A DNA stretch of 64,000 nt from an uncultured Candidatus Saccharibacteria bacterium. GTDB lineage: Bacteria; Patescibacteriota; Minisyncoccia; Phycocordibacterales; 2-02-FULL-43-11. Each line of letters opens with the position of its first letter. The first letter of the stretch is position 1. The translations under genes and the position numbers were made by a program. Below, piece by piece: positions 14,965 through 61,405 of this stretch. The DNA lies in the NCBI GenBank assembly GCA_964348785.1, contig CAYGDO010000003.1:57631-121630 (forward strand), in the 5' to 3' direction. The notes under the pieces were generated by a model, which was not told where the DNA came from, made no database searches, and saw only the letters and a program-made list of their open reading frames with translations.

Positions 14965-15051
14965 TGGTGCGCGGGACAGGACTTGCACCTGCACGCCCGT
15001 AAGGGCGCTACCACCTCAAGGTAGTGGGTCTGCTAATTCCCCCACCCGCGC
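14965..15051 (-). tRNA. tRNA-Leu (GAG), type II with a long variable arm, CCA encoded
   Basis: Hand-folded: acceptor GCGCGGG/CCCGCGC; 3-bp D-stem with an 11-nt loop; anticodon arm CTACC-TTGAGGT-GGTAG; variable arm CGCCC-TTAC-GGGCG; T-arm GCAGG-TGCAAGT-CCTGT. Confidence 0.75.
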
Positions 15052-24818: not shown

Positions 24819-24909
24819 CAAAGACTCTCAAACTGTAATATTTCAAATTTTCCAGCGTCTTCATAAGGTAAACATCTTTATACTTTATAAAAATCGTAAA
24901 AACAAAAAT

Positions 24910-25995
24910 ATGAACAAAACTACCACAATAACTGGAGTAATTATTACAATTATAATAATTGGGGGACTTATTTTTTATGCTAACCAAAAACCAATTCCAC
25001 CAATAGAACAGACCAAAACCCCTCAGACTACTTATACGAACTCTGATCAAACAAAACAGGCTGGTTTACCTACAGCAACAACAAATTCAAGTGTCTCCTC
25101 AACAGATACCACTGCCGTCTTAAATGGCACAGTCATTCCGCAAGGGTCTTTCACAAGCTATTGGTATGAATATGGCACTTCCTCCAACTTAGAAAACAAA
25201 TCATCAAGTCAAAAACAAATGATCGGCTCCGGTTTTACATCAATTACAGCACCTGGATATATCACGGGGCTAACAAAAAATACAATATACTTCTTCCGAA
25301 TAATAGCTGAGAACTCTTTTGGCCAAGTGACCGGTTCACAACATTCATTTCAAACAACTTTTGGTAATCCCCCACCAACAGGAAATGCTCCGGTCATGAA
25401 AACCTTAACGGCAACGGGGGTATCCAAAACCACAGCCAAGTTACACGGAGAAGTAAATCCTAACGGCGCACCAACTCAATTTTGGTTTGAATATGGACAA
25501 AACCCAAACTTGGGAAACACTACAGCTTTTGAAACTATAGGAAATGGAACAATAAAATTACCAGTATCCATCTCCTTATCAAATCTTAGTCCAGGAACTA
25601 TGTATTATTTTCGTCTTAATGCTCAAAATCAGTTTGGGACAATCACCGGTGAAATCCTAAATTTCAAAACCGACAATCCCCCATCAGCAACAGCTCCATC
25701 TGTCAGTACCAAAAACGCCACAAACATTAGCACTTCTACTGCCATGCTTAAAGGGACCGTCAATTCAAATGGGGCAGAAACATTATATTGGTTTGAATAT
25801 AGCGTCAGCCCCGCATTTACTTCATTGTTATCATACTCAACCGAAAAAAAATCTAGCGGAGCAGGCTTAGAAAACACATCAGTTGAAGGAAATATAATCA
25901 ACTTAAACTCAAAAACAAATTACTATTTTCGCCTAATCGCCCAAAACAATATGGGGCTTGTAAAAGGAGAACCCGTGACATTTAAAACGAAGTAA
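24910..25995 (+). CDS. Membrane-anchored surface protein with four tandem ~95-aa Fn3-like beta-sandwich repeats
   Basis: N-terminal TM helix, then a fourfold repeat L.G.VNPNG..T.YWFEYG…L…T.YYFRL.A.N.FG…G…F.T. The start is taken as the Met at 24910; the ORF-track 5' extension covers tRNA-Val. Confidence 0.55.
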   Translation: MNKTTTITGVIITIIIIGGLIFYANQKPIPPIEQTKTPQTTYTNSDQTKQAGLPTATTNSSVSSTDTTAVLNGTVIPQGSFTSYWYEYGTSSNLENKSSSQKQMIGSGFTSITAPGYITGLTKNTIYFFRIIAENSFGQVTGSQHSFQTTFGNPPPTGNAPVMKTLTATGVSKTTAKLHGEVNPNGAPTQFWFEYGQNPNLGNTTAFETIGNGTIKLPVSISLSNLSPGTMYYFRLNAQNQFGTITGEILNFKTDNPPSATAPSVSTKNATNISTSTAMLKGTVNSNGAETLYWFEYSVSPAFTSLLSYSTEKKSSGAGLENTSVEGNIINLNSKTNYYFRLIAQNNMGLVKGEPVTFKTK

Positions 25996-27572: not shown

Positions 27573-28178
27573 TTGAGCTTATTATCTACGTGTTATTATT
27601 TATCTGTGATATACAAAATAACAGGTAAATTATTGGAACGAGAACTGGGTTACGCCGTCATAGAAGCTGGGGGCATCGGCTACAAAGTCTTTGCGACAGC
27701 CGAAACTCTAAACACAATTACCAAAAACAGTTCCAAAGAAGTCTCATTGTGGACGAGACTTTCAATCAAAGAGGACGCTTGGGATCTTTACGGTTTTCTA
27801 GAAAAAGAAGAAATGGAATTATTTGATCTCTTAATTTCTATCTCCGGAATTGGACCGAAAACTGGCATTTCTGTTTTAAACGCTTCTTCAATAGAAAACC
27901 TTAAAACCGCTATCGCTTCCGGTGATACTTCTTATCTAACAAAAATCTCTGGCATTGGCAGAAAAATTGCTGAAAAAATTATCTTTGAATTAAAAGAAAA
28001 AGTTGGGGGAAGTAAAGAAGCCGAAAAAGCTATGCAGGGCGATTCAGACGTTCTTCTGGCACTTCAATCACTTGGCTACAACGAAAGAGATGCTAGAGAG
28101 GCAGTCAAAAAATTGCCAAAAGAAGTTACCGGCACAAGTAACAGAATAAAAGAGACATTAAAATTGTTAGGTAAATAA
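27573..28178 (+). CDS. ruvA: Holliday junction DNA helicase RuvA
   Basis: …ITGKLLERELGYAVIEAGGIGYKVFA… (RuvA domain I) and a C-terminal domain III. The true start is probably GTG at 27606. Confidence 0.75.
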   Translation: MSLLSTCYYLSVIYKITGKLLERELGYAVIEAGGIGYKVFATAETLNTITKNSSKEVSLWTRLSIKEDAWDLYGFLEKEEMELFDLLISISGIGPKTGISVLNASSIENLKTAIASGDTSYLTKISGIGRKIAEKIIFELKEKVGGSKEAEKAMQGDSDVLLALQSLGYNERDAREAVKKLPKEVTGTSNRIKETLKLLGK

Positions 28179-28534
28179 TTCACAAAAAAGCACCGAGAGC
28201 GGTGCTCGAAGAAAAAAGGGAGGGCTAGCTGGCCTCAGCGGAGATTTGTTGCGCCTCATCAAGCTTAACCCATCCAACTTGGACCAGATACTGGAGGACA
28301 TCAATCCCCTTGCGACACGCCTCAGCGATCGTATCTTCGACCTGTTTACGCCAAGGGCGAACCGAAAGTGCAGGGCAAACTCTCCACAGAATAGTTGGAT
28401 TGAAACCATTCATACAGTCTTTCCGCACCCCAACAGAAGGAGTGCTTTACCAAATTAAATGTTACGCCTATTTTCACAAAATACAAATAAAAAGTGGCGG
28501 GATTTCTCCTGCCACCTAACCAGACACCGAAGCC

Positions 28535-28870
28535 TTACTTCTTCTTTTTGCCTTGCCCAGTCTTCCCCCGCCACGAACGATCCCGCCAGATGACGAGACT
28601 GTTCCAAGTGATCCTGACCGGAGAAATCCCGGCTCCGAGAGTAATTTTCAGAAAATCCGTGCGAATTGAGAAGCCCAATCCCGCATCCTCCAGGATCCCA
28701 ACGATCTCATTGAATTCCGGAGGATTAACTCCTTGGGCTTCATAATCCTCGAGGACGCCCATGATAACCCTGCGCAGAATTTCAGACCTGCTCGGCCTGC
28801 CTCCGTTTACTTTTCTAACTGATTTACCCATAAACTGTTGCCTGTCTGACGGGTTTTGAACGCTTCGCAC
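28535..28870 (-). CDS. Hypothetical basic protein inside GC island 1; weak resemblance to phage small-terminase/HTH-like proteins
   Basis: …GGRPSRSEILRRVIMGVLEDYEAQGVNPPEFNEIVGILEDAG… The coding frame is uncertain in GC-rich DNA. Confidence 0.25.
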   Translation of the reverse strand: MRSVQNPSDRQQFMGKSVRKVNGGRPSRSEILRRVIMGVLEDYEAQGVNPPEFNEIVGILEDAGLGFSIRTDFLKITLGAGISPVRITWNSLVIWRDRSWRGKTGQGKKKK

Positions 28871-28960
28871 CTGCGAATTAGTTCGTTACTTTAATATAAA
28901 AAATAGATTTTGTCAAATAAAAATACTCAATAAAAAATCCCCAGCCGAAACCGAGGAAAT

Positions 28961-29359
28961 CTAACTTCCGCACTCCCTATCAACCTGGAGTGGTAAATAA
29001 GGCTGGATAGAACAACGCGTGGGCCTACGGTTAAGGACGAAACTTGAAGACATAAGGCGGTTAAGGGCTAGACGAGCGACCCGAAGTCCGGCCCAGCCGG
29101 CCCACGAAGCCAGCAACACCAATGTCACCATCTCTGGCGACACGCTAATCGCCAGCGATTCCCTGGCGAAATACCCCGCCCCACTCCCAAGCATCCAAGA
29201 TGGAATGTGCCCCCACCCCACCAAATCCGAAAAGTGAACCAATGAGGGTTCAAAAAACACCAAACCCAAAAACCGATTCTGTTCCTCCCAACCGTAAAAG
29301 TCATTGGAAGTGAGAAACACGAAGTACAACACCGATAGAACTACGAGCGTTCTTTTCAT
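28961..29359 (-). CDS. Hypothetical secreted/membrane protein at the edge of GC island 1
   Basis: Signal peptide MKRTLVVLSVLYFVFLTS encoded in AT-rich DNA, followed by a GC-rich body. The N-terminus resembles that of the 37849-38823 protein. Confidence 0.3.
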   Translation of the reverse strand: MKRTLVVLSVLYFVFLTSNDFYGWEEQNRFLGLVFFEPSLVHFSDLVGWGHIPSWMLGSGAGYFARESLAISVSPEMVTLVLLASWAGWAGLRVARLALNRLMSSSFVLNRRPTRCSIQPYLPLQVDRECGS

Positions 29360-29446
29360 GGTGATTATTTCCTGACCAACTTATACCACTAAAATTAATA
29401 AACTGTCAATATCGAAAAACCAGCCTAAATAAGCGATATTAAGCAA

Positions 29447-30709
29447 ATGGACAATTTGCTAAAAATCACAAAAAATATAATTCCCAAAAAACTCTTTAAA
29501 ACCCTCCAACCTATATACCATTACAAACTAGCCCTTTTAGGCGCACTTCTCTATCGATTTCCTTCTAAAAAAATAAAAGTCATTGGTGTCACTGGAACCA
29601 AAGGAAAAAGTTCAACAACTGAAATGATTGCTCATATCCTACGAAATGCTGGATTTAAGACGGCATCCGCCAGCACTGTTCGTTTCCAAATTGGTGAAAA
29701 TGCCAAAAGAAATATGTTTAAAATGACAATGCCAGGCAGATTTTTTATTCAAAAATTTTTGAGAGACGCTGTAAATCAAAAATGTCATTTTGCGGTAATT
29801 GAAATTAGTTCGGAAGGCGCAAAACAATATAGACACAGATTCATTGATTTAGACGCTCTAGTGTTCACAAATTTAGCAAAAGAACATATTGAATCTCACG
29901 GCTCTTATGAAAAATATGTTGAAGCCAAATTATCTATTGCTAGTTCTCTAAGCAAATCTCCAAAAAAACAAAAATTCATGATTGGAAACATAGATGACAC
30001 CGAAACCTCCAAATTTTTTGAAAAAGCCCTACCAGCAAAACCTGTTACATACTCCTTAAAAGAAGCCGATAAAATCAAAGAAAAAGAAAATGGAATTGAT
30101 TTTGAAATTGAAGGAAAAAAAATTCATTCCAACCTAGTTGGCAAATTCAACATTTATAACTGGCTGGCCACTTGGAAAACAGTTTCAAATTTTGGAATTT
30201 CAATAGAACAATTTAAAAAAGCAGTTGAAGAATTAAAAGAAATTCCTGGCAGAGCTCAAATTATAAAAAAAGGCGACATTGAATGTGTAATTGATTATGC
30301 TCACACACCCGAATCTTTAGAGGCAATTTACAAAGCTTTTCCAAACAAGAAAAAAATCTGTATTTTGGGAAATACAGGCGGAGGCAGAGATACTTGGAAA
30401 AGACCTGAAATGGCTAAAATTGCTGACAAACATTGTGAGACTATTATCCTGACAAACGAAGACCCTTACGATGAAGATCCTATGAAAATAATCAATGATA
30501 TGGCCGTTGTTATCCCAAAAGATAAATTGTTTGTAGAAATAGATAGAAGAAAAGCCATAAATACAGCCATAAAAATGGCCGACAAGGATTCAATTGTCAT
30601 AATTACTGGCAAAGGAACTGATCCTTATATCATGGGCAAAAATGAAGAAAAAACTCCATGGGACGATAAAACCGTAGTCGAGGAAGAATTGGGGAAAATA
30701 AAAAATTAA
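29447..30709 (+). CDS. murE: Mur ligase, MurE-like (UDP-MurNAc-tripeptide synthetase)
   Basis: VIGVTGTKGKSSTTEMIAHIL (ATP-binding) and DYAHTPESLEA (MurE DYAHTP motif). Confidence 0.75.
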   Translation: MDNLLKITKNIIPKKLFKTLQPIYHYKLALLGALLYRFPSKKIKVIGVTGTKGKSSTTEMIAHILRNAGFKTASASTVRFQIGENAKRNMFKMTMPGRFFIQKFLRDAVNQKCHFAVIEISSEGAKQYRHRFIDLDALVFTNLAKEHIESHGSYEKYVEAKLSIASSLSKSPKKQKFMIGNIDDTETSKFFEKALPAKPVTYSLKEADKIKEKENGIDFEIEGKKIHSNLVGKFNIYNWLATWKTVSNFGISIEQFKKAVEELKEIPGRAQIIKKGDIECVIDYAHTPESLEAIYKAFPNKKKICILGNTGGGRDTWKRPEMAKIADKHCETIILTNEDPYDEDPMKIINDMAVVIPKDKLFVEIDRRKAINTAIKMADKDSIVIITGKGTDPYIMGKNEEKTPWDDKTVVEEELGKIKN

Positions 30710-37203: not shown

Positions 37204-37638
37204 TTAAAATGTTAATTTTCTTGTAGTTTCGTCTATAAATTCAAAATTTATTTTGTAAGCATTATTTGGAATAGACTCCTTCACTATTTCTGGCCATTCC
37301 ACAAAAATTAAATTGTCGCTGTCCTTGAGTAATTCCGCAAACCCCAGAACCCCTAATTCTGAACTGTTATTTAAACGATAAACATCCATATGAATTAAGT
37401 TTTTAAACTTAAATCTTAAATCTTTAATTTTAAATCTTTTTTGAATGACAAAAGTGGGACTGGTGATATCTTCTTGTATGCCGAGTGTGCTCGCTACGCA
37501 TTTAACAAACGCTGTTTTGCCAGAACCAAGTTCACCAAACAAAACCACAACTGTGGCATTGTCCCCTTTTTCAATCTTGGATAAAAAATCAGAAGCCAAC
37601 TTTTGCGTATCTTCTAAACTTTTACTTAAAAATTCCAT
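37204..37638 (-). CDS. tsaE: tRNA threonylcarbamoyladenosine biosynthesis ATPase TsaE
   Basis: VVLFGELGSGKTAFVKCV and SPTFVI motifs. Confidence 0.75.
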   Translation of the reverse strand: MEFLSKSLEDTQKLASDFLSKIEKGDNATVVVLFGELGSGKTAFVKCVASTLGIQEDITSPTFVIQKRFKIKDLRFKFKNLIHMDVYRLNNSSELGVLGFAELLKDSDNLIFVEWPEIVKESIPNNAYKINFEFIDETTRKLTF

Positions 37639-37680
37639 ATCCGCATTTTATATTAAAAGAGAGTCGTTAGACAAATCAAT

Positions 37681-37692
37681 CCCGTTAGAAGC
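37681..37692 (+). repeat. Dispersed motif copy CCCGTTAGAAGC, with a degenerate copy GTCGTTAGACAA 15 nt upstream
   Basis: Seen in sequence. Confidence 0.5.
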
Positions 37693-37787
37693 CACGGACA
37701 CTGACTCTGGATTAAAAAACATTGTTAAAAAATAATTAAAATCTAAAAATATAGGGACGTAGATAATCTGTCCGTGTCCTGCTTTTA

Positions 37788-37828
37788 ACGGGATAAAAAA
37801 AGCCCCCCGCGATGCAAGCATCGCGAGG
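37788..37828 (-). terminator. Rho-independent terminator of the Gly/Tyr-rich protein gene
   Basis: CGCGATGC-ttg-CATCGCG followed by GGGGC and a T7 run on the minus strand. Confidence 0.55.
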
Positions 37829-37848
37829 GATTGAAATTCGCTTGGCGA

Positions 37849-38823
37849 CTAATGTCGCCTTCCTCCTCCACTTGGAGTGGACCCAGAGGACACCTGTCCT
37901 CCGTGATTCAAACCAGAAGAAACACTTCCCCCGATCGTCGCGCCACCACCCCAGGAGTAGGTGTTTTCACGGGTATACCCGACGTTGCTCGGATAAACGT
38001 TGAGGATGGCACCGCCACCCACGGAAAACCCTGAGGACGAGTACGACTGACTGCCATACCCGAAACCAGACCCTCTATGGCTGGACCGAGATTGTCCGCC
38101 ATAAACACCGCCCCCGGAATAGGCCTGACCTCCATAGGTCTGCCCGCCGTAAACACCACCACCAGAGTAAGCCTGACCTCCGTACACTCCGCCAGAGTAG
38201 GCTTGTCCACCATAAGTTCCTCCGGAGAAGGCCTGCCCTCCATAGGTACCGCCCGAAAAGACTTGGCCTCCGTAGGACTGGTAGCTTCCGTAGCCACCAT
38301 CACAGCAGGGTTGTGGATCACAACATTGCTGGACCACAACCACCTGCGGAGGTGGAGATGGGTCGGCGAGGTGACGAACAGCGCGGTAAGACTTTTGCCC
38401 TGTGGCATAATCCACCACTTCCGTAATGTAATTCGTCCCAATCACTTCATCCCGCGAGTTACGGACAAGCACCACTCGGTGCGTTTCCACTCGCGAGTCC
38501 CGATAATGAGGCGATCGAGGATCGGTCGGAAGAATTTCCTCATCCGGGACACCAACACCGCTGGCAAAAAGACCTTCCGCCATCCCCTCCTTACTAACTG
38601 GAATCATTCCCGTGGAAGTGGACACCTCATTAGTAGTTACAGAGGGAGAATTGGTTTCGACCATGATGACCACATTGGTCACGATCACGGTCACCGTATT
38701 GGTTACGACTGGAGGAGGGACCGACATTTCCACCTTCGCGACGACACCTGTCGTCCACAGCGTGGCCGGCATCGAGGAGACAGCGAAACCGAAAACCGAC
38801 AACAAAACGATTAGAGTTTTCAT
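37849..38823 (-). CDS. Secreted Gly/Tyr/Gln-rich low-complexity repeat protein with a Cys cluster (QQCCDPQPCCDGG), encoded in high-GC island 2
   Basis: Signal peptide MKTLIVLLSVFGFAVSS, then ~9 tandem YGGQ(A/V)(Y/F)SGG(T/V) repeats. GC is roughly 58%. The frame is supported by the in-frame signal peptide and by the repeat periodicity. Confidence 0.5.
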   Translation of the reverse strand: MKTLIVLLSVFGFAVSSMPATLWTTGVVAKVEMSVPPPVVTNTVTVIVTNVVIMVETNSPSVTTNEVSTSTGMIPVSKEGMAEGLFASGVGVPDEEILPTDPRSPHYRDSRVETHRVVLVRNSRDEVIGTNYITEVVDYATGQKSYRAVRHLADPSPPPQVVVVQQCCDPQPCCDGGYGSYQSYGGQVFSGGTYGGQAFSGGTYGGQAYSGGVYGGQAYSGGGVYGGQTYGGQAYSGGGVYGGQSRSSHRGSGFGYGSQSYSSSGFSVGGGAILNVYPSNVGYTRENTYSWGGGATIGGSVSSGLNHGGQVSSGSTPSGGGRRH

Positions 38824-38941
38824 TGAGTAGATGGGTTGAATTGTTTGAGAACAGCTACATTTAATTATATCATAAAAATAGATAAAGTCAAACAAGATAA
38901 ACGCCCTTTTTACAAAGCCAGATAAAGGTTAAAATAGTCCC

Positions 38942-41258: not shown

Positions 41259-42284
41259 ATGTCGATAAAAAAAGAAAAAACTGAAGAGAAAAAACCTCAA
41301 GAAGAGACTTTTTTAGACCAAACCCTACGACCTTCAGAGTGGGACGAGTATATTGGTCAACAAAACATTAAAGAAAATCTAAAAATCTTGCTTCAAGCTG
41401 CCAAAGAAAGAAAACACCCTCCAGAACATATCCTTTTCTATGGCCCACCAGGCCTTGGCAAGACAACCTTGGCTCATTTAATAGCCAGAGAGACTGGTTC
41501 GCAAATGAAAATTACATCAGGGCCAGCAATTGAGAAAGTTGGAGACCTTGCTTCTATACTAACCAACCTTTCACCTGGAGATATTTTGTTTGTAGATGAA
41601 ATCCATCGACTAAATAAATCCGTTGAGGAAATTCTATACCCGGCCATGGAATCCGGGGTTCTTGATATCATTATTGGCAAAGGTCCGTCGGCCCGAACTA
41701 TTCAGCTTGATTTGCCTCCGTTTACACTTCTCGCCGCAACAACCAAAATTGCCATGCTCTCCTCCCCTCTTCGCTCAAGATTTTCCGGTGGAGTCTTCCG
41801 ACTAGAATTTTATAAAGAAGAAGAGATTGGAAAAATTATTGATCGATCATCAAAAATTCTTGGTGTAGAAATGAAAGCCGACGCTATAAAAGAAATTGCT
41901 AAAAGAAGTCGCTTTACGCCAAGAACTGCCAACTACCTACTAAAAAGATGTAGAGATTTTGTCCAAATTAAAAAAGAAAAAATGAGTAAAGAGATGGTAG
42001 AAAGTGCTTTATCATTACTTGGTATAGATGAAGAAGGACTAAACAGCGCAGACCGCAATCTTCTCGAAGTAATGATTGAAAAATTCGGCGGTGGACCTGT
42101 TGGTTTAAATACTCTTTCGGCGGCACTCTCCGAAGATCAATCCACAATTGAAGATGTTCATGAACCATATCTCTTGCAACTTGGTTTTATTGAAAGAACT
42201 CCTAAAGGAAGATCCGCCACCACAAAAGCGTACGAACACATTAAAGTGAAAGGAAAAAACAAAAACCAAGAAAAATTACTGTAA
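41259..42284 (+). CDS. ruvB: Holliday junction DNA helicase RuvB
   Basis: Walker A GPPGLGKTTLA, Walker B ILFVDEIHRL, sensor motifs and the RuvB C-terminal winged helix. Confidence 0.9.
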   Translation: MSIKKEKTEEKKPQEETFLDQTLRPSEWDEYIGQQNIKENLKILLQAAKERKHPPEHILFYGPPGLGKTTLAHLIARETGSQMKITSGPAIEKVGDLASILTNLSPGDILFVDEIHRLNKSVEEILYPAMESGVLDIIIGKGPSARTIQLDLPPFTLLAATTKIAMLSSPLRSRFSGGVFRLEFYKEEEIGKIIDRSSKILGVEMKADAIKEIAKRSRFTPRTANYLLKRCRDFVQIKKEKMSKEMVESALSLLGIDEEGLNSADRNLLEVMIEKFGGGPVGLNTLSAALSEDQSTIEDVHEPYLLQLGFIERTPKGRSATTKAYEHIKVKGKNKNQEKLL

Positions 42285-47783: not shown

Positions 47784-48887
47784 TTAACGATTCATAGGCA
47801 TAACAACATACCTAAATGAATGATCGGACACCCCCCTTAAAAGGGCCGGCTTTGCATCACCTGAAAAAGATAAAGAGATGCTGTCTGATTTTATAAAATT
47901 TAGACAATCAATAACATATTTATGATTGAAACTAATCTCCATTTCATCACCAGAAATAGCTGCGTCTAAATTTACACAGCCTTCACCAATTTCATTACTT
48001 TTGGATTTTATAGAAACTACTTTTCCTTGGGGCAAAATGGAAAAAACAGTTTGATTAAACTTATCAGAAAAAGCAACAGAGGCTTTTAATGCTCTCAAAA
48101 GATCTTCCTTTAAAATTATCACCTCTGTTTTAAATTCTTTAGGAATAATTTGTTTATAATCTGGGAAACTTCCATCAACGGTCCTAGAAATTAATACCAC
48201 GCCTCCGACCTCTATCATTATCTGGCCCTTAGAAAATGATGTCTTAATTTCATCATTTTTAAATTCATCAGCAATTTTAGCTATTTCTATTGCATTTTTT
48301 ACTGGTACGATTGTTTGAGAAATTTGTTCTCCCAAATTTAAACGCACACTCTTTTCAGCCAATCTAAAAGAATCCGTAGAGACAAAAAATAAATTCTTTT
48401 CCTGAGAAAATAAAACTACACTGGAAAGTTCTGGTTTTATCTGAGATAGAGAAGCACTGTAACAAACAGACTTTATACCGTCCGATAAAGATGATGCTTC
48501 TATTTTAAAATGTGTCTCACCAATCGGTTTTGACATTTTAGGAAAATCATCAGTATTGAAACCCTTAACAGTGGCCTTACCAGACTTACTTTTTACCACA
48601 AGATTACCCTCTATAAATTCCAAATTAACAGTGCTCTCTTTACCTACCGAACTTAAAAAACCTAAAAGAGCTTCAGCGCTTACGGCCACAATTCCATTTT
48701 TATCCGTTTTGCAATTCAAAGTTACCTCTATAAAAACATCAAGATTAGTAGCTCTAATTAAAAGTTTTCCAGAATCAGCTTCTAAAACAACATTAGACAA
48801 AACAGGTAAAGTTAAATTTTTACTACAAGCTCTATTAGCTAGTGCCACTCCCCAACTTAATTTTTCTTTTGAACATTCAATCTTCAT
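47784..48887 (-). CDS. dnaN: DNA polymerase III beta sliding clamp
   Basis: Three-domain ~367-aa protein with the DnaN N-terminus MKIECSKEKLSWGVALANRA…, immediately downstream of dnaA. Confidence 0.85.
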   Translation of the reverse strand: MKIECSKEKLSWGVALANRACSKNLTLPVLSNVVLEADSGKLLIRATNLDVFIEVTLNCKTDKNGIVAVSAEALLGFLSSVGKESTVNLEFIEGNLVVKSKSGKATVKGFNTDDFPKMSKPIGETHFKIEASSLSDGIKSVCYSASLSQIKPELSSVVLFSQEKNLFFVSTDSFRLAEKSVRLNLGEQISQTIVPVKNAIEIAKIADEFKNDEIKTSFSKGQIMIEVGGVVLISRTVDGSFPDYKQIIPKEFKTEVIILKEDLLRALKASVAFSDKFNQTVFSILPQGKVVSIKSKSNEIGEGCVNLDAAISGDEMEISFNHKYVIDCLNFIKSDSISLSFSGDAKPALLRGVSDHSFRYVVMPMNR

Positions 48888-49097
48888 ATGTATTTATTAT
48901 TTTAATTAAATTTATGATTATGATAATAGTCCTGTGTATATGTTGATAAGTTTTTTAACCTTTATTTATTAACGCTATTTTTTGGAAAATTAAGTTTTTG
49001 CTTTGGGGATTAAATTTTTTATTTGTTAATGATTTTTGTTTTGTGTAAAAGTTATCCCGTTTTTATTATTTTTTTCCACAAGCAATCAACAGGTTTT
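48888..49097. promoter_or_regulatory. AT-rich dnaA-dnaN intergenic region, a candidate oriC/DUE with DnaA-box-like 9-mers (TTTTCCACA at 49072-49080; TTATCCCGT at 49052-49060)
   Basis: Seen in sequence; the boxes differ by 1-2 mismatches from TTATCCACA. A second candidate lies upstream of dnaA at 50457-50556 (TGTTGATAA). Confidence 0.35.
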
Positions 49098-50456
49098 TTA
49101 CAGCATAGCTCTTATTTGGGCGATATCTTGTTCCATTACCTGGTTGTTTTTTACCTGTTCTTTTATTTTTTCATAAGAGTGGATTACTGTGGTGTGATCT
49201 CGTCCTCCCAACTTCTCGCCTATTAGAGGAAACGATACTCCACAGTCTTCTCTTAAAATATACATAGCAATTTGTCTTGGTAACACAACCTCTTTCCTTC
49301 TAGTTTTTTCATAGACCGAAGATTCTTCTATGTTGTAATAGGTGGCTATAGCTTTTACTACTTCTTTTGCTGAAGCGGATTTTTTAGGTTTTATGTTTAG
49401 TTTTAGAAGGTTTTTTATTTCTGATAAATTCAAATCTCTTCCTTTTATTTGCATTTGGCACAAAATTGAATTCAACACCCCTTCTATTTCTCTTATATTG
49501 CCCTCTATTGTGCTCGCCAAGAAGTTTACGTTGTCTTCTGATAGATTACCCCCCAATCGGCCTACTTTAGCCCTTATAATGGCCAAACGAGACTCGTGGT
49601 CTGGTGGTGGAATATCCACAATCATACCAGCGGCGAATCTTGATTTTAGTCTGTCTTCTAGACCGGGGATAAAATTGGGATGCTTGTCAGAGGAAAAAAC
49701 TATTTGTCTCCCTGCGTCGTACAAGGTGTTGAAAAGATGAAACAGCTCTTCCTGGGTTTTTTCTTTACTAGAGAGAAATTGGATGTCATCCATTATGATG
49801 ACATCATATTTTCTGTATTTTTCTTTAAAAGATGAAATTTTATTTGCTTGCACTGCGTTCATGTAGTCTAAATAGAATCTTTCTGATGTAAGGTAGAAAA
49901 CTTTTTTGCCATCTTTCCTGTCTTTGATGCTATTACCTACCGCTTGAATCAGGTGAGTTTTTCCATGACCAGTATTTCCGTATACGAAAAGTGGATTATA
50001 GACCGATCCTAAATTTTTAATTACTGCTTGGGCGGCAGTGTGGGCAAGTTCATTAAATGGACCAACAACAAATGTGTCAAAGATATATCTTGGATTTAAA
50101 TTGCTTTCCTGATCAACATAATGTTCTCCAAGTGGTAAAGATTGATTTATGTTTGCTGATAGAGGTTTTTTTTGCTCAAGAACTTTCTTCTGGTCAATTT
50201 TAGCAATGGTGTAATCTAAACCTCTAATGTGTTCTGAAGCGTTTCTTAGTATTTTTAATATATTTTTATGATATTTATTTGCTATCCAATCCCTCACGAA
50301 CGCGTTTTGAACAGAGATATAAACAATACCGTCGTCAACCTTTGATATCTCGGTGTCTTTAAACCAAGTACTAAAGTTTGCTTTAGAAATTTCTATTTCT
50401 ATTTCAGCGAGAACTTTTTGCCACAAGGATTTATTATCTATTTCTAAAGTTATCAT
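49098..50456 (-). CDS. dnaA: Chromosomal replication initiator DnaA
   Basis: AAA+ Walker A GNTGHGKTHL, Walker B IIMDDIQFL, sensor II, and C-terminal DNA-binding domain IV (…GGRDHTTVIHSYEKI…). Confidence 0.9.
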   Translation of the reverse strand: MITLEIDNKSLWQKVLAEIEIEISKANFSTWFKDTEISKVDDGIVYISVQNAFVRDWIANKYHKNILKILRNASEHIRGLDYTIAKIDQKKVLEQKKPLSANINQSLPLGEHYVDQESNLNPRYIFDTFVVGPFNELAHTAAQAVIKNLGSVYNPLFVYGNTGHGKTHLIQAVGNSIKDRKDGKKVFYLTSERFYLDYMNAVQANKISSFKEKYRKYDVIIMDDIQFLSSKEKTQEELFHLFNTLYDAGRQIVFSSDKHPNFIPGLEDRLKSRFAAGMIVDIPPPDHESRLAIIRAKVGRLGGNLSEDNVNFLASTIEGNIREIEGVLNSILCQMQIKGRDLNLSEIKNLLKLNIKPKKSASAKEVVKAIATYYNIEESSVYEKTRRKEVVLPRQIAMYILREDCGVSFPLIGEKLGGRDHTTVIHSYEKIKEQVKNNQVMEQDIAQIRAML

Positions 50457-52401: not shown

Positions 52402-53652
52402 TTATTCAACAATTTGGAGTGTGTAAAGTTTTAAGTTATTTTTATTCAAAAAAGTTAAAAATTTCTCATTTGAGCTCAAAGACATTTTATAGGCATCAAC
52501 ATCTTCTCCGGCATCGTTACTTAAATTGGTTAAAAATACAGTTTCTCCAGTTGATATATTTGTCTTCCACATCTCATCCTTAAATGATTTAGTTCCTAAA
52601 TACCAATCTTCTGGGTAATCCCCCGTTGGTATGGTTTCTGGTACAGCGCAAAATAGTGTAGTTTTTTCAATTTGAGACCATACACATTTTTCTGGTAAGG
52701 TATTAAATCTAAATGGAAAAGATTGGTTTGTTTCTATGTTTAATATATAGCTATCAAAACTATTTTTATTAGATTCAGAATGCAATACTCGTTTTAGATC
52801 AGAGCTATAAAGAGTGGTTAATCCTTTTTTATCAGATAGGACTAATTTTTCTTCCCCAGTTTTTAAGTTTACAGTTTGTGATAGACCATCAATGTCTTTA
52901 GCCGGTTTAGAAGAAATTATTAAGTAATTTTGTTCTGGCCAATCTATTAACCAATCATTTAGAGGTGAGCTGAAAATTTCTAATTTTTGTTGCAGAGAAA
53001 GATTGCTGGTAATTATAGAGCTTCCAATTTCGCTTTGGTTTATATATGCAATTTGAGAATTGTTTGGAGAAAATATTACGTCCCCTACCGTTGCGTTGAG
53101 AAACTGAGTTTGTAATTCACCATTACCTCCTGTTTTGTCTTTTACACTACCCAAAAAGGTTTGCACTTTTTCTTGGTCTCTTAGGTATTGTCCTACTAGC
53201 TGATCGCCGTTTTTTGTCCAGTAAGCATTATATATTTGAGGTATTGTATTGGTCGTTAACCTTTGAGGCCTTATGTTTTTAGCTTCTGTTTCGTAAGCAT
53301 TACCCTTTGCTCTTTCAATAAATCTAGTGTAATCCTTACCTTCTTTGTTAAATGTGACTCCTCCTGATGTTGGTGTTTCCGAGACTAAACGAAGTTGCGG
53401 TTTAAATGCTCCCCCAGTATTGTTGCCATTATTATTACCATTGTCACCCGCTGTCCCGCCGGTTGTGCCGTTATTGTTGTTATTGTTGCCTTGGTTACCA
53501 TTGTTATTATCAATATCTCCAGAAATTGGCAGATTTGGATCTGTATTTATATTTGTTCCTCTAAAAAACAAAAAATAAGCAAGTACACCAAGTCCGATTA
53601 AGACAAAAATGATGATTATGGGAATTATTTTTTTTAGTTTATCGTTTTGCAT
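52402..53652 (-). CDS. Membrane-anchored extracellular protein with an N/G-rich low-complexity linker and a beta-propeller-like (TolB/WD40-like) body; last gene of the T4SS-like block
   Basis: N-terminal TM helix, then …NNNGNQGNNNNNNGTTGGTAGDNGNNNGNNTGG, then repetitive beta-strand-rich segments. Confidence 0.35.
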   Translation of the reverse strand: MQNDKLKKIIPIIIIFVLIGLGVLAYFLFFRGTNINTDPNLPISGDIDNNNGNQGNNNNNNGTTGGTAGDNGNNNGNNTGGAFKPQLRLVSETPTSGGVTFNKEGKDYTRFIERAKGNAYETEAKNIRPQRLTTNTIPQIYNAYWTKNGDQLVGQYLRDQEKVQTFLGSVKDKTGGNGELQTQFLNATVGDVIFSPNNSQIAYINQSEIGSSIITSNLSLQQKLEIFSSPLNDWLIDWPEQNYLIISSKPAKDIDGLSQTVNLKTGEEKLVLSDKKGLTTLYSSDLKRVLHSESNKNSFDSYILNIETNQSFPFRFNTLPEKCVWSQIEKTTLFCAVPETIPTGDYPEDWYLGTKSFKDEMWKTNISTGETVFLTNLSNDAGEDVDAYKMSLSSNEKFLTFLNKNNLKLYTLQIVE

Positions 53653-53655
53653 TTT

Positions 53656-54840
53656 TTATGGACTACAATGAACTCTGGCTGGGTTAGGTATGTAAGTTAT
53701 TATTGGAGCTTGATACATGCCAGTACCTGGACTGGTCTGATAAGTTGTTGCGGGCACTTGGACACATATGGCCGTTTTTGCTGCATCAGCGGCCGCCCTC
53801 ATTTCCGCCTCTCTATTTCTCACTTGTTCTGCTGGTAAATTTAATCTGTTTATTGTTGCCATTCTGTCTCTATATTCATTTTCTACAGCATCAAGAGCGT
53901 TTTTCACATCGTTGGGGTTTGTTGGGCGTATTCTTCCGTCAGCTACTTGAATTTTAAAATTTTCTGGTTTTTGGGCCATATCTATTTTAAATCCTTCTTT
54001 GCTTGATTCGGCTTGGGCAAGATTTCTTATTTCTGTAGCTTGTCGGTCTAGACTGGCTAAAGCATTTTCAATATTATTTTCTCCTGTTTTGGCTAGTATT
54101 TCTTGCTCTACAGCAGGGAGTCTTTCAAGTGCCGCTCGGATTTCTTCATCAGTCTTTCCGGCGAAGTATGTATCTCTTAGGGTTTGTAGTCTGGTAACTT
54201 CTTCTTCGGTCATTCCGGTTGTACCTTGAGCATTTATTATTCTTTGAATTTCACGCATATCTCTATAACTGTTTGCTTTTTGCTGGAGAGCGTTAGCTTC
54301 GGCGCGCATTTCTCCAGTTGTTTGTCTTAATCTGTCTAAAGCAGCGAGGCTTCTATTTACAGCCCGGTCAAAATCTCTTTGAGCGGTCCTAGACATCATC
54401 ATTAATTCAGTAAGATCGGTACTTTTGAGGGATTCATTGACCACTTTTAAATCAACTAGTTGCGGGTTTATGGTATTTAAAATTATATATGAAGCAAAAA
54501 TAATCAATAATCCGCCAAGCGCCATTTTGATGGTGTGTTTTCCTTCTTCTTTATTTGATATGGCGTCAGTTGAAACATAACTGAATCCACCCATTACAAT
54601 TTGAAGAACAGCTAAAACGGCCGCTGAGGCCACTATTAATTTATAGAGATTATTTATATAAACAGCCAAGTTGTTGCTTCCTGTTTTGGTGATGCATTGC
54701 CCAGTTGCTCCTACTGTGCATGTCCCCGGTAATGGTGCCAACTCTACGTAGTCTAAAGCTAATGTTGTGGTCATAATGCCAAAAAATAAACAAATAGGTA
54801 TTAGTATCAAAATTATTTTTTTGGCTAATGCTTTTTTCAT
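53656..54840 (-). CDS. Secreted/membrane protein whose N-terminus has a VirB2/TrbC-pilin-like hydrophobic hairpin, followed by a long coiled-coil
   Basis: Signal peptide, two hydrophobic helices (LIVASAAVLAVLQIVMGGF and MALGGLLIIFASYIILN), then an ~250-aa heptad-rich region. Confidence 0.3.
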   Translation of the reverse strand: MKKALAKKIILILIPICLFFGIMTTTLALDYVELAPLPGTCTVGATGQCITKTGSNNLAVYINNLYKLIVASAAVLAVLQIVMGGFSYVSTDAISNKEEGKHTIKMALGGLLIIFASYIILNTINPQLVDLKVVNESLKSTDLTELMMMSRTAQRDFDRAVNRSLAALDRLRQTTGEMRAEANALQQKANSYRDMREIQRIINAQGTTGMTEEEVTRLQTLRDTYFAGKTDEEIRAALERLPAVEQEILAKTGENNIENALASLDRQATEIRNLAQAESSKEGFKIDMAQKPENFKIQVADGRIRPTNPNDVKNALDAVENEYRDRMATINRLNLPAEQVRNREAEMRAAADAAKTAICVQVPATTYQTSPGTGMYQAPIITYIPNPARVHCSP

Positions 54841-55847
54841 TATCTTGAAAGGGTGTTAAGTTTTATAAAAATAATTTTTAATGAATTATTTGCTGACTGA
54901 AAATAGTCAAGGTCATTTGAAAGTTGTAACGATAAATTTGCTTGGCCATTTTTACCACTAGTGTTTCTTAAAATTATAGCACTATCAGAATTTTCAATAC
55001 TTTTATCGGATAAGACCCATTTATACTTTAGAGTAGATAAATTTTTGTTATTTACACCAAAAAATACTGGCATAGCTGATATCACGGCCTCTTCTTTATC
55101 AAATGTAAAACTTCCTTCAAGGGCTTTGTTTGTTAATAGACCATATTCTGGATCTTCTTCATAAAACACAACTTTTGATTCTATTGGCTCTATTGAGACC
55201 GTTTTACTAGCGAACGCCCCATTATCCGGGTAGCTAGCTTCTACAGTGATTTCTATAGTTTTTGGAAGGTCGTTGTCTGATTTGTAAGCAATATTGTTTT
55301 TTCCATAACCTGATAAATTATTTAAATATTGATTACCATCTTTCCATTTAAATATTATTTTACTATCCGGCACCTTTTTTCCAGAAGCATCAAGAATGTT
55401 TGGTATCGCAACTAGTTTTAAAGATCCTTGAAAAGGCAATCTTGGTTTACCTTTGTAAAATGGTGGTGTATAGGAATTAGCCTCATAGAGTATGTCCACT
55501 TTTGCTGGAGAAAATATAATTCTTTTTGAAAAAATTTGACCATTTTTTTGTCCAATGACCTCTAAGGTATTTTTTGACCCCAACTTGCCAGATTTGAAAG
55601 AGTATATTCTTAACCCTTTACCACTTTGGACATTTTCTCCGTTTAAAATCCAAGATAATTCAAGTGTATTTATGTCTACTCCGTAAGCGTTTAAAGTGGC
55701 CACGACTTGTTCTTCTGGTCCTGGATTATCAGGTGTTATGGTAAGTTCGACGCCATCTAAGCCAGTAAATTGAGCATTAACTGTATGAGTCAAGAAAAAC
55801 AACAGAAAAAAAATAACATAGGAGATATTGAAAAACTTTCTAAACAT
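54840..55847 (-). CDS. Secreted beta-rich protein (hypothetical)
   Basis: Signal peptide MFRKFFNISYVIFFLLFFLTHTVNA. Confidence 0.35.
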   Translation of the reverse strand: MFRKFFNISYVIFFLLFFLTHTVNAQFTGLDGVELTITPDNPGPEEQVVATLNAYGVDINTLELSWILNGENVQSGKGLRIYSFKSGKLGSKNTLEVIGQKNGQIFSKRIIFSPAKVDILYEANSYTPPFYKGKPRLPFQGSLKLVAIPNILDASGKKVPDSKIIFKWKDGNQYLNNLSGYGKNNIAYKSDNDLPKTIEITVEASYPDNGAFASKTVSIEPIESKVVFYEEDPEYGLLTNKALEGSFTFDKEEAVISAMPVFFGVNNKNLSTLKYKWVLSDKSIENSDSAIILRNTSGKNGQANLSLQLSNDLDYFQSANNSLKIIFIKLNTLSR

Positions 55848-55888
55848 AGATAAATTTTAACATATTTTTTAAAAGTCACTTAGCATAC

Positions 55889-57145
55889 TTATGCTTTTTT
55901 GCTTGCTATTTTTTGTATAGCTTCATTTGCCTTTTCTCCTGCTCCTGGAATTTTAGAGATTACTTTTGATCCATCGGTTATAAGCCATGCATAGGCAATA
56001 TCAAAAGACCAAGCAGGCATTATGCCTAAGGATACGAAATCTACTAAAAATCCAAGAGCTAAGCTAATGGCTAGTTTTCTGTTCATCATCTTATTAAACC
56101 AAAAGAAACTAAATAGTATTAGACCGATTAAGACATCAGCAAGCATATTAACCGCTAGGGCTATTACAGTGACACCAAGAGCATCTTGTACAAAATCAAT
56201 TATTACAGCTCCGGCGCCTAGTAATATCCAGGTCGTAACATTTAATTTTTTCGGTGTTTTATTTTGGGATAAAACCTTTTGAATATTTTTTAGGTTTTGG
56301 CCCAAACTGTTTTTTTGAGTATTTACAGGTGGTTCCCCGTTGGTGTCACCCGATTCATTTTTTTGGTCGCCTGTGGGTTTACCCTCTTCCCCTTTTAGTT
56401 TCGGAGGTAAATTTGAATTTTTAGTATTAGGAGTTTCAGCGGTATCGTAAGATTCACCGTTTTTCCCTTGAACAGTATCGTTTAGTTTCGGAGGCTGATT
56501 GGCCTCGCTGAAACTATTATTTGGTTTTTGTTCGCGATCTCCTTTGCTTTGTGGAGATTCTTCTGTGTCAAACGATTCACCGTTTGGTCCTTGTACGGAA
56601 TCATCTAATTTTGGAGGCTGATTGATTGTGCCGAAACTACTATTTTGTTTTTGTTCTTCATCGAAAGTTTGCTGTGTGTTATTTCGATTTTCTTCTTTAT
56701 TTTCTTTTTGTGTTGAGATACCACCCCCTCCTTTATTTTCATCATTTCCTGTTTCCTCTCTATAAGGATCTTTTTTTTTGTTATTGTTACCATTCGGAGT
56801 TATATATTTTGGAGCTTCTTTTTTTTCGTTACCATTATTCAAATTGTTTTTTTCTTGAGGTTGAAGATTGGAGTCTTGTCCTTTTTTGTCTTGATTTAAT
56901 CCTTTTAGTCTTGTGTTTACTATCTGTTCTGCCAATTGATCGGCTGATAAATTTATGTTTAAACCAGAATAAAAATTCATAGTTTCATCTATGATTCTTG
57001 ACATGTCAGCGTCCCATTTTTTACTGATTTGCTCTAGTTTCGGATTAATTAACTCTGCCCTTTTGGTTACTGATTTTAGTATTTTCTCTTTCATGGCCTG
57101 TTGATTTTTTGCCGGAGAAAGATTTGTTTTTTCTGCCATTTTCAA
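55889..57145 (-). CDS. Protein with a long N/Q/K-rich low-complexity region containing internal ~35-aa repeats and a C-terminal 3-TM membrane anchor (possibly VirB2/VirB3-like)
   Basis: Repeats …NSSFGTINQPPKLDDSVQGPNGESFDTEESP… occur twice. C-terminal TM helices LLGAGAVIIDFV…, VIALAVNMLADVLIGLILF, LAISLALGFLVDFVSLGI. Confidence 0.35.
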   Translation of the reverse strand: MKMAEKTNLSPAKNQQAMKEKILKSVTKRAELINPKLEQISKKWDADMSRIIDETMNFYSGLNINLSADQLAEQIVNTRLKGLNQDKKGQDSNLQPQEKNNLNNGNEKKEAPKYITPNGNNNKKKDPYREETGNDENKGGGGISTQKENKEENRNNTQQTFDEEQKQNSSFGTINQPPKLDDSVQGPNGESFDTEESPQSKGDREQKPNNSFSEANQPPKLNDTVQGKNGESYDTAETPNTKNSNLPPKLKGEEGKPTGDQKNESGDTNGEPPVNTQKNSLGQNLKNIQKVLSQNKTPKKLNVTTWILLGAGAVIIDFVQDALGVTVIALAVNMLADVLIGLILFSFFWFNKMMNRKLAISLALGFLVDFVSLGIMPAWSFDIAYAWLITDGSKVISKIPGAGEKANEAIQKIASKKA

Positions 57146-57431
57146 ATTATAACTCTTATTTGGATAAAATAAGAGTTATAAGATTTTTATTACGACGAGT
57201 GAGCCCGCCTGCCGGCGAGGCAGGGAGCGGGTGGAAAATTCTTACCTGTCTGCGTGTTACGCACGAGCAGATTTTACACAGCGTTCAAGCGAAGTTGTAT
57301 AAAAAGGTTTAATGCCTCCCCTCTTTGGAGCGGGAAAGTGCTAGCTTGTGAGTTTAATATGGGTGTGGCGCTTGCCCTTCGGTCAATGCCCTTTATTTAG
57401 ATAAATTAAGAGTTGAAAAGGCTTCAAAAAT

Positions 57432-59252: not shown

Positions 59253-59253
59253 T

Positions 59254-59916
59254 TTATTTTTGTTCTATTATAGGGCTATGATTTTCCCCAGGGTTAAACA
59301 ATTTATAATAAAATTCCACTAACTCTTCTGTTCCCAGCCTTACTGATCTGATACCACAACGTAATAGTGCTTGTTCGGCTATGGCCACTCTCTGTTCGAG
59401 TTGCACTTTATTTTCTTCAAAAGTCATTTTTTCCTGTTCTTCTTTATTGTTACTTGTTGCTTTTTTTGATCCGCCCTGGATTATATCTGTAAATGACGTT
59501 GAAACACCGTGACTGCCCCCTGAAATTAAAGTTGAGGCGTAAGGTATAACTACAAAAAATCTTTTACTCATTATATTGGAGTTTTGTGTGAACTGTTGTA
59601 TGAAATTAATATATTCTTTTGTTTGGATTTTTAGAAGGTCGTTTAACTGTTCTTTGTACCTTTGTTCAAGTTGGGCTATATATGGCTTTATATCCATTCT
59701 TCTTGATTCAATAAATATTTCTACTGAAAAATCTAAAACATTCAAAAAATTTTGAAACTGGAGTATGGTGGCTTGTTGTATATCTGCTGATTGTAAATCA
59801 AAATTGATAGATGAAGCCATCAAAATTACTCTAAGTGAATTATCTTTGAGAATTAATGTCCCATCTCTTATTTCTTTTATTGGTAAAAAATCTTGTGTTG
59901 CTTTTCCTGAAGACAT
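59254..59916 (-). CDS. VirB4 N-terminal domain encoded as a separate ORF (split gene or frameshift)
   Basis: …FLPIKEIRDGTLILKDNSLRVILMASSINFDLQSADIQQATILQFQNFLNVLDFSVEIFIESRRMD…, the pattern of the TrbE/VirB4 N-terminal domain. It ends 1 nt before the ATPase ORF start. Confidence 0.5.
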   Translation of the reverse strand: MSSGKATQDFLPIKEIRDGTLILKDNSLRVILMASSINFDLQSADIQQATILQFQNFLNVLDFSVEIFIESRRMDIKPYIAQLEQRYKEQLNDLLKIQTKEYINFIQQFTQNSNIMSKRFFVVIPYASTLISGGSHGVSTSFTDIIQGGSKKATSNNKEEQEKMTFEENKVQLEQRVAIAEQALLRCGIRSVRLGTEELVEFYYKLFNPGENHSPIIEQK

Positions 59917-60024
59917 ATTTAAAAGGTGTTTATGTCTTATATTATAACCTAAAACAGTTTTAATAGATTATTTAATTGGTAATTTTGTGGAAAATTAGCA
60001 ATTAAATAAAAACAAGGATTTTTC

Positions 60025-60432: not shown

Positions 60433-60433
60433 T

Positions 60434-61396: not shown

Positions 61397-61405
61397 TGTT
61401 TTATT

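Follow-up and report, generated by a model that had tools for sequence, protein, structure and literature searches.

A small, clade-restricted islet of three GC-rich genes between ruvA and murE in an AT-rich patescibacterial genome, most likely of horizontal origin

Introduction

What is encoded by a short stretch of high G+C content (GC) that separates ruvA from a Mur ligase gene (murE) in the AT-rich genome of an uncultured, ultra-small Candidatus Saccharibacteria bacterium, and how did it come to be there? We addressed this question for island 1, which occupies positions 28,179 to 29,446 of a 64-kb window of contig CAYGDO010000003.1 (the window being the whole stretch of DNA analysed, whose coordinates are used throughout; L0xx designates relative loci or lineages, and P00xx members of protein families). 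A preliminary description had paired island 1 with a second GC-rich stretch, island 2, as insertions of related foreign cassettes or as a paralogous family of secreted proteins with a hypervariable region. The explanation that fits best, and that we consider probable, is a clade-restricted accessory islet of three coding genes (o132, o111, and o67), most likely derived by horizontal gene transfer, for which we propose a regulatory role (o111) and a membrane-protein role (o132).

Results

Island 1 is a genuine insertion between ruvA and murE

GC lies between 0.30 and 0.40 in 400-nt windows along the 64 kb, except at 28001-29200 (0.47-0.49) and 37601-38800 (0.44-0.59). Annotation and the GC profile thus both place a GC-rich stretch between ruvA and the Mur ligase gene, as first described, although the island averages 0.47-0.49 and not the 55-60% given at that time. 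At 100-nt resolution, island 1 resolves into three GC-rich blocks (peaks 0.54-0.60) between AT-rich spacers (0.33-0.38). The stretch had also been said to separate ruvA from its usual partner ruvB. The distance to ruvB, 13 kb, is correct, but in this clade the conserved downstream neighbor of ruvA is murE. Among related Paceibacteria loci with both genes (n = 51), the ruvA-murE gap is at most 127 nt in 45, with a median of 23 nt, as opposed to 1268 nt here. Because ruvA abuts murE in these 45 relatives, the ancestral order must have lacked the segment, which was inserted. The genome itself is patescibacterial, of class Paceibacteria, and the best matches to its MurE protein came from Nomurabacteria-, Taylorbacteria-, and Zambryskibacteria-type metagenome-assembled genomes, at no more than 57% identity.

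An abrupt compositional change in metagenome-derived sequence might also reflect a chimera made in assembly, or contamination by an organism of higher GC. However, contigs of three independent assemblies (Logan ERR3094302, Logan ERR3094292, and ENA ERZ27247837) encode the two larger island proteins and are 100% identical to the window over 8-12 kb, both junctions of island 1 included. Three more lineages, sampled elsewhere, have orthologous islets at this junction, and the island spacers have a host-like AT content. Island 1 is real DNA and not an assembly error, and a chimeric or contaminant origin is almost certainly wrong. Island 2 was likewise reproduced.

The islet was found in four lineages (the window, L005, L006, and L077/L078), in all cases at the ruvA/murE site. 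The number of synonymous substitutions per synonymous site (dS) is 1.1 for murE between the window and L006, and about 2.1 for ruvA between the window and L077. Given a common site in all four lineages and housekeeping genes this far apart, the insertion predates the split of these lineages. The same junction holds unrelated minus-strand genes in two other loci, namely one encoding 368 aa with an HHHHDH motif, metallo-beta-lactamase-like by eye (L024, 2320-3566), and one encoding 228 aa, ROK-family-kinase-like by eye (L063, 4065-5000). The site therefore tolerates insertions, and seems to be a recurrent landing place.

Three protein-coding genes in separate transcription units

Each GC-rich block of island 1 corresponds to a single minus-strand open reading frame (ORF), i.e., o132, o111, or o67 (Table 1). 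The same three-gene arrangement adjoins a murE of 95% identity in L005, a single 1.9-kb metagenomic contig from the Joint Genome Institute. Between the window and L005, third codon positions account for 24 of 43 differences in o132, 58 of 99 in o111, and 13 of 20 in o67, and the ratio of non-synonymous to synonymous substitution rates (dN/dS, Nei-Gojobori) is 0.17, 0.095, and 0.20, respectively, with 0.09 for murE. These third-position substitutions and dN/dS values of 0.1-0.2 establish all three ORFs as coding, and all three genes are under purifying selection. Both ORFs singled out in the preliminary description, at 28961-29359 and 28535-28870 on the minus strand, are present and neither has an assignable family; the latter, noted for its folded-looking core, has its true start at 28831 and proved to be a genuine gene that founds a new family. 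The idea of a hypervariable region did not hold, since dN/dS is about 0.1 and the divergence looks like allele mosaicism rather than hypermutation. As regards a diversity-generating retroelement, differences in the variable parts are codon-periodic at that same dN/dS, and these parts are not repeated in the 64-kb window, which as a whole was not screened for a reverse transcriptase.

GC-rich islands in AT-rich genomes are usually RNA genes, and the blocks could alternatively represent one or several structured non-coding RNAs, with ORFs arising as by-products of GC-richness. Long ORFs do occur on both strands of this GC-rich DNA, and a few 150-nt windows have minimum free energy z-scores of about -2.2 to -2.7. 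Against this stand the codon-periodic substitutions and low dN/dS, protein homologues recovered by HMMER at 32% identity, and plus-strand ORFs whose sequence is not maintained from the window to L005, the one antisense to o111 sharing its first 13 residues only. Dedicated RNA searches (Rfam covariance models for 4227 families, ARAGORN, and z-scores in 150-nt windows on both strands) gave a similar picture. At gathering thresholds, Rfam returned only transfer RNAs (tRNAs) across the whole window, and the structured-RNA check suggested earlier for 28180-29400 yielded no Rfam match. Relaxing the threshold to E <= 10 added two chance matches in 27900-29700 (13-18 bits vs gathering scores of 45-137), and in island 2 chance matches only, far below threshold. 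Island 1 contains no tRNA, ARAGORN detected no transfer-messenger RNA, and the island 1 z-scores, ranging from -2.7 to +1.3, carry no consistent signal. We hence regard an RNA identity for these blocks as extremely unlikely.

Judged from sequence signals, the islet units are monocistronic: in each, a GC-rich ORF stands between a sigma-70-like promoter, which is AT-rich, and a terminator hairpin (Table 1). The o111 terminator is kept in L005, and in L077 with pair-preserving changes. The likely o132 promoter, which sits in an 87-nt spacer common with the divergent murE (98.9% identical to L005), was missed by the scan tool because position 6 of its -10 hexamer is a G. In L077/L078, o132 and o111 are followed directly by the 3' end of ruvA; L077 lacks the entire o67 unit, so that its o111 terminator lies right next to ruvA. 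Gains and losses in the islet seem to involve complete units of promoter, gene, and terminator. The only o67 orthologue, 88-90% identical, is that of L005, and o67 is probably a later addition to the islet; its protein has a weak match to phrog_25183 in PHROGs (E = 0.002), a family of unknown function. Two structural variants were also seen. L005 carries a 113-nt AT-rich insertion (1442-1554) between the o111 terminator and the o67 promoter, at a place corresponding to about 28476-28484 of the window. In L006 (780-1046), only about 91 residues of the o132 orthologue align before it passes into a C-terminal GGDEF-domain gene fragment, with no o111 downstream; the islet has been rearranged there, or else the 1.2-kb contig is chimeric.

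Table 1. Features of island 1, its flanking genes, and island 2 (window coordinates)
Feature	Position	Strand	Details
ruvA	27573/27633-28178		Pfam RuvA_N/HHH_5/RuvA_C
Whole inserted segment	28179-29446		1268 nt, from ruvA stop codon to murE start codon
o67 hairpin terminator	28188-28207	-	GAGCACCGCTCTCGGTGCTT then T-run; also ends the convergent ruvA when read on the other strand; terminator scan; kept in L005
o67	28225-28428	-	67 aa from GTG start, or 62 aa from ATG at 28413
o111 terminator hairpin	28485-28515	-	GTGGCAGGAGAAATCCCGCCAC then TTTTTATTT; read from sequence
o111	28535-28831	-	98 aa, Lys-rich N- and C-terminal tails; ORF 28535-28870, start ATG at 28831
o111 promoter and ~55-nt leader	28832-28916	-	TTGACA-17 nt-TAAAGT; promoter scan, 10/12 matches
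Palindrome TTCGCAGGTGCGAA	28864-28877		In o111 leader; single occurrence in window
o132 terminator hairpin	28938-28957	-	Terminator scan; kept in L005 and L077
o132	28961-29359	-	132 aa; orthologues in L005, L006, and L077
Likely o132 promoter	29380-29409	-	TTGACA-18 nt-TATAAG; read from sequence
murE (Mur ligase gene)	29447-30709		
Island-2 gene	37849-38823	-	324 aa; signal-like N-terminus; Gly/Tyr/Ser-rich; YGGQAYSGG-type repeats (YGGQ(A/T)(Y/F)SGG)
ruvB	41259-42284		Followed by yebC and ruvC

o111 encodes a protein with a winged-helix-like predicted fold

The ATG start assigned to o111 matches the starts of its orthologues, P0002 (70% identity) and P0009 (55%); P0010 and P0011 are distant relatives, both on short contigs. 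The family is very small: a search of 5.8 billion clusters yielded one in-clade homologue, and an exhaustive HMMER search brought the family to five members among 1.84 billion representative proteins, adding one in-clade relative, one on a 942-bp NCBI contig, and one beside a transposase gene. All five genes are GC-richer than their AT-rich surroundings. In L079 (470-769; GCA_013565615.1, JACCDO011302075.1), P0010 is 32% identical to o111 and its gene has a GC of 0.53 and a GC at third codon positions (GC3) of 0.65 between spacers of 0.13-0.24 GC, i.e., the same GC-rich body in AT-rich surroundings, in an unrelated context. The transposase gene adjoining the relative in L080 encodes Pfam rve domains and is IS481-like by eye.

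An AlphaFold2 model of o111 built from the five-sequence alignment (predicted local distance difference test score, pLDDT, of 69) contains helices at residues 15-33, 40-49, and 58-66, followed by beta-strands at 72-74 and 79-82; invariant positions include R20, G34, P37, R57, D59, W82, R85, and W87. The top Foldseek matches of this model in PDB and BFVD were all winged-helix DNA-binding domains (Zur/Fur, AhrC, DtxR/IdeR, Rex, LexA, and Rok), but none is significant (E > 0.4, the top hits having E of 0.5-4, template-modeling scores of 0.4-0.56, pLDDT 69), and o111 matched no winged helix-turn-helix (wHTH) family in Pfam, NCBIfam, or a PDB profile search, both of which count against a regulatory role. 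Other folds fared no better. A ribbon-helix-helix protein (CopG/Arc/MetJ) was considered and rejected, with RHH_1 scores of 12.7-13 bits vs a cut-off of 20.5 (E 0.01-0.13), a match spanning only 15 residues, and a model without the N-terminal beta-strand, while the PDB sequence-profile search returned designed helical repeats only. On the basis of the predicted model, o111 may work like a small winged-helix DNA binder, and we file it in no family.

The regulatory region of o111 is better conserved than the genes around it. Over a 27-nt promoter core, the window, L005, and L077 do not differ at all despite a ruvA dS of about 2, and the o132-o111 spacer is 86-93% identical among these three while the adjoining coding sequences are 62-70% identical. 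The stem of the palindrome is kept in L077, where its loop has changed; the leader hairpin is conserved but not statistically unusual. As read from these alignments, a conserved leader with a palindrome is the pattern expected of an operator or of a 5' stem-loop. The o111 protein would then probably bind DNA and regulate its own expression through the conserved promoter and leader, with TTCGCAGGTGCGAA as a candidate operator.

o132 is a probable two-helix membrane protein

The o132 family is nearly orphan. Its orthologues in L005 (89% identity), L006 (68%), and L077 (48%) always adjoin murE. The o132 protein begins with a hydrophobic helix (residues 2-18) and ends in a variable Arg-rich tail; between them lie a loop of about 58 aa and another hydrophobic helix (about residues 75-95). 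The loop is acidic and highly conserved (NDFYGWEEQ...DLVGWGHIPSW...GYF.RESLA). Hydropathy peaks coincide with both predicted helices, which the structure prediction places at 2-18 and 75-109, with an unreliable pLDDT of 54, too poor for a fold search. The gene had been taken to encode a secreted protein. Its N-terminus indeed has an n-region (MKR) and a 13-residue h-region, but there is no AXA-type cleavage site, and the second hydrophobic helix and Arg-rich tail follow. By the positive-inside rule, both termini would face the cytoplasm, and o132 is probably an N-in/C-in membrane protein with two transmembrane helices rather than a cleaved secreted protein.

No match to known phage, plasmid, or defence systems

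Pfam, NCBIfam, PHROGs, and PADLOC returned nothing significant for the island proteins, and Pfam, NCBIfam, and PADLOC specifically gave no match of any of them to known anti-phage defence or toxin-antitoxin systems. Phage and plasmid collections contained no match, and neither did viral contigs searched with both family alignments; a search with the promoter core gave no match either. A tblastn match to Phocaeicola phages (E = 0.09) was dismissed as spurious because it falls within the N-terminus of an SNF2 helicase, with an hhalign probability of 10%. Two metagenome scans found nothing either; they did not recover L005 or L006, and the collection evidently lacks those samples.

A foreign composition that has not faded

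GC3 is 0.52-0.59 in the island genes and 0.22-0.34 in nearly all other ORFs of the window, the outliers being three short ORFs (0.40-0.43) and two ORFs above 0.5 that overlap tRNA genes. The only real genes with GC3 above 0.5 in the window are thus the four genes of islands 1 and 2, a contrast well outside what chance would give, and the foreign look of both islands noted from the start is well founded. GC at codon positions 1 and 2 is raised as well, and the islet genes have an observed GC of 0.51-0.56 where 0.40-0.46 would be expected for the same proteins under host codon usage. Codon likelihoods for the islet are better under Paceibacteria of 45-50% GC, with the host among the worst models, and GC-richer Paceibacteria relatives do exist (loci of up to 0.56 GC). 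A composition typical of a 45-50% GC background makes entry by horizontal transfer most likely. The islet would most likely have entered an ancestor of the four sampled lineages in this way, and its source was probably a patescibacterium of higher GC, or a mobile element of such an organism. Patescibacteria carry hundreds of genomic islands and transferred genes, mostly exchanged among Patescibacteria themselves (PMC12455944).

The age of the islet is hard to reconcile with this composition. GC3 of o132 codons 1-86 is 0.63, 0.62, 0.55, and 0.62 in the four lineages. Under a two-state amelioration model with a host equilibrium GC3 of 0.28 and housekeeping dS values, the starting GC3 required would be 0.9-1.5 for the window-L006 pair and more than 1.9 for window-L077, i.e., above 1 in all modeled cases except one, with the caveat that the model assumes neutrality and uses saturated dS and only 46-146 codons. 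Passive amelioration therefore cannot explain the high GC3, and the islet composition must either be actively maintained or be re-supplied from a pool that stays GC-rich. Polarized recent substitutions in o132 include 9 GC-to-AT changes vs 3 in the reverse direction (p = 0.15).

Divergence along the islet is itself a mosaic. Between the window and L005, dS is 0.14 for o132 codons 1-58, 0.19 for murE, and 0.30 for o67, and rises to 0.97 for o132 codons 59-86 and 2.5 for o111, against a flank range of 0.14-0.35, the excess of synonymous differences in o111 over its flanks being highly significant (Fisher test, p = 8e-16). The flanks of o111 are 95-99% identical between the two. Nucleotide identity of o111 is 69.6% for window-L005, 67.5% for window-L077, and 61.6% for L005-L077, so that the three alleles are roughly equidistant, in a star-like pattern. 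Divergent o111 alleles between near-identical spacers suggest in-clade allele exchange by homologous recombination.

Discussion

Weighing the explanations

Several results weigh against a horizontally acquired islet. No integrase, transposase, or tRNA target was found in or beside island 1 (the nearest tRNAs are at least 3.4 kb away), nor any convincing flanking repeat around it. A 15-nt A-rich repeat (28175-28189 and 29477-29491, 14/15 match) was treated as chance and not counted as a pair of attachment (att) sites because its second copy lies partly inside conserved murE codons, and a flanking 19-nt inverted repeat, only 74% complementary, was likewise set aside. No member of the o111 or o132 families was found in a GC-rich genome among the 5.8 billion clusters and 1.84 billion representatives, so that no donor is at hand. 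A simple account of old transfer is also incomplete, because GC3 near 0.6 persists at housekeeping dS of 1.1-2.1. Finally, the mosaic depends on one metagenomic contig, L005, which could be a strain chimera joined by the assembler at identical spacers; chimeric or not, it shows that divergent o111 alleles with common flanks coexist in nature. Some of these observations would fit native, fast-evolving genes whose GC-richness is actively maintained, be it by selection on codons or messenger RNA or because they lie in a recombination hot spot subject to GC-biased gene conversion. The GC3 excess of recombining bacterial genes reportedly amounts to a few points, far below the roughly 30 seen here. 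In favor of native genes, GC3 of o132 stays at 0.55-0.63 in four lineages despite saturated synonymous divergence, all o111-family genes share the GC-rich habit, the mosaic, star-like alleles point to recombination, and no donor was found. Moreover, in 11 of 14 bacterial groups GC3 is raised in the genes that recombine, an effect ascribed to GC-biased gene conversion (PMC4450053). However, the absence of the segment at ruvA/murE in 45 of 51 relatives means that it was inserted at some point, the shift at codon positions 1 and 2 is a signature at the amino-acid level, and the recent polarized changes in o132, although not significant, run toward AT. We therefore rate a purely native origin as unlikely, if still worth considering. 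A more daring proposal, which we rate as improbable, would place the islet, and perhaps island 2, in a class of clade-specific small genes of AT-rich, reduced patescibacterial genomes. The GC-rich composition of such genes would be actively maintained, through selection on messenger RNA or codons or through strong biased gene conversion, and alleles of the gene body would replace one another within conserved, AT-rich arms that hold the promoter and the terminator. The winged-helix-like o111 and the membrane protein o132 would then form an undescribed strain-specific immunity or incompatibility module.

The preliminary description was right that there are two insertions, the second between tsaE and pilB (a pilB-like T2SSE ATPase gene). 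These divergent neighbors lie about 90 nt apart in L011 and L072 and 1303 nt apart here (37639-38941), which marks island 2 as inserted. Its single gene has a GC of 0.56, a GC3 of 0.54, a strong terminator downstream, a 30-nt tandem period at 38188-38276, and no family match. Whether the islands are related cassettes, or one paralogous secreted family whose signal peptide is conserved and whose body is hypervariable, is another matter. Both sit at conserved junctions, the genes of both are monocistronic, GC-rich, on the minus strand, and AT-rich at the 5' end, and of the 171 candidate N-termini in the window theirs match each other best in both directions. The margin is slight, though, with a local score of 31 vs 26-29 for unrelated signal-like N-termini, and the signal peptides that had been called near-identical match at only about 6-9 of 15-16 residues, depending on gaps. 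In pairwise comparisons of the islands, blastn and tblastx did no better than chance, BLASTP gave E > 1, and nothing was detected beyond a generic signal-like N-terminus. The o132 orthologues begin differently from o132 itself, their N-termini having drifted (e.g., MKKTMLVATFLYILFIS), and the mature parts are wholly different, i.e., a two-helix membrane protein vs a Gly/Tyr/Ser repeat protein. From these comparisons, the features common to the two islands look architectural and compositional, not homologous, and we consider a shared ancestry very unlikely.

Significance

Within these bounds, the GC spike in this AT-rich candidate-phyla-radiation genome corresponds to three real small genes, and not to an RNA, a chimera, or one of two related cassettes. 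Two protein families, both nearly orphan, are added, and for one of them the predicted fold is winged-helix-like. A GC3 near 0.6 in four lineages with a host GC3 near 0.25-0.3 is not predicted by textbook amelioration. If this holds in complete genomes and population data, the islet would offer a compact natural test case for base composition in streamlined symbiont genomes, and could help to tell apart the effects of selection, of biased gene conversion, and of alleles imported repeatedly.

Other features of the window

Beyond the islands, a minus-strand cluster at 52402-63997 resembles a Gram-positive-type type IV secretion system, with a TraG/VirB4-like ATPase (57432-59252), a PrgI-family protein (60025-60432), a weak match to a type IV secretion system pilin (53656-54840), and several large proteins without Pfam match. 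Judged by N-terminal sequence, genes at 49098-50456 and 47784-48887 (minus strand) are dnaA- and dnaN-like, and plus-strand ORFs from 50697 onward are rnpA- and yidC-like; cumulative GC skew has its minimum near 49.2-49.6 kb. The area at 47784-50456 is thus probably the replication origin region, as far as gene content and skew can indicate. ARAGORN predicted a tRNA-Leu(GAG) at 14965-15051 that the Rfam gathering-threshold scan does not list, the two methods agreeing on the other tRNAs. Several small membrane and secreted proteins without annotation are encoded in a row upstream of rpsT and ruvA, among them a 361-aa protein (24907-25995) with a single hydrophobic N-terminal segment, four internal repeats of about 85 aa, and only faint fibronectin-III-like Pfam matches.

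Comparison with known systems

Overall, island 1 is a small, old, clade-restricted accessory islet, and belongs to a familiar kind, the horizontally acquired islet of orphan genes (ORFans). Like other patescibacterial ORFan islets, it has an atypical composition, breaks a conserved gene order, encodes hypothetical proteins, and uses codons in a way compatible with a GC-richer patescibacterial source. Unlike them, it spans only 1.27 kb without a mobility gene, tRNA, or att-like repeat, and it is old, being common to synonymously saturated lineages, yet unameliorated. Only the retention of GC-rich codons and the star-like alleles between conserved spacers go beyond the ordinary.

At the level of single genes, the predicted o111 fold resembles that of wHTH regulators (Fur/Zur, DtxR/IdeR, ArgR/AhrC, Rex, LexA, and Rok) in its order of three helices and a beta-hairpin over about 70 residues, and o111 resembles autoregulated repressors in that a palindrome closely follows the conserved promoter of the gene. 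It departs from wHTH regulators in the lack of a sequence-profile match and of significant structural scores, and no counterpart was identified in them for its Lys-rich tails and the invariant W82, R85, and W87 after the wing. In their GC3, the islet genes with evidence of recombination parallel the recombining GC3-rich genes of other bacteria (PMC4450053), although the excess is about 30 points here and extends to codon positions 1 and 2.

A looser likeness concerns the islet as a whole. In our islet, a DNA-binder-like gene stands beside a membrane-protein gene, and divergent alleles lie between near-identical regulatory flanks. In the immunity regions of phages and mobile elements, a divergent repressor allele lies between conserved flanks, beside a membrane exclusion protein. 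The two are alike in architecture only; the islet has no phage or plasmid homologue that we could find and no other phage genes nearby. By this analogy, and as a guess, o111 and o132 might resemble the regulator and membrane-protein module of mobile elements, in an immunity- or exclusion-like role.

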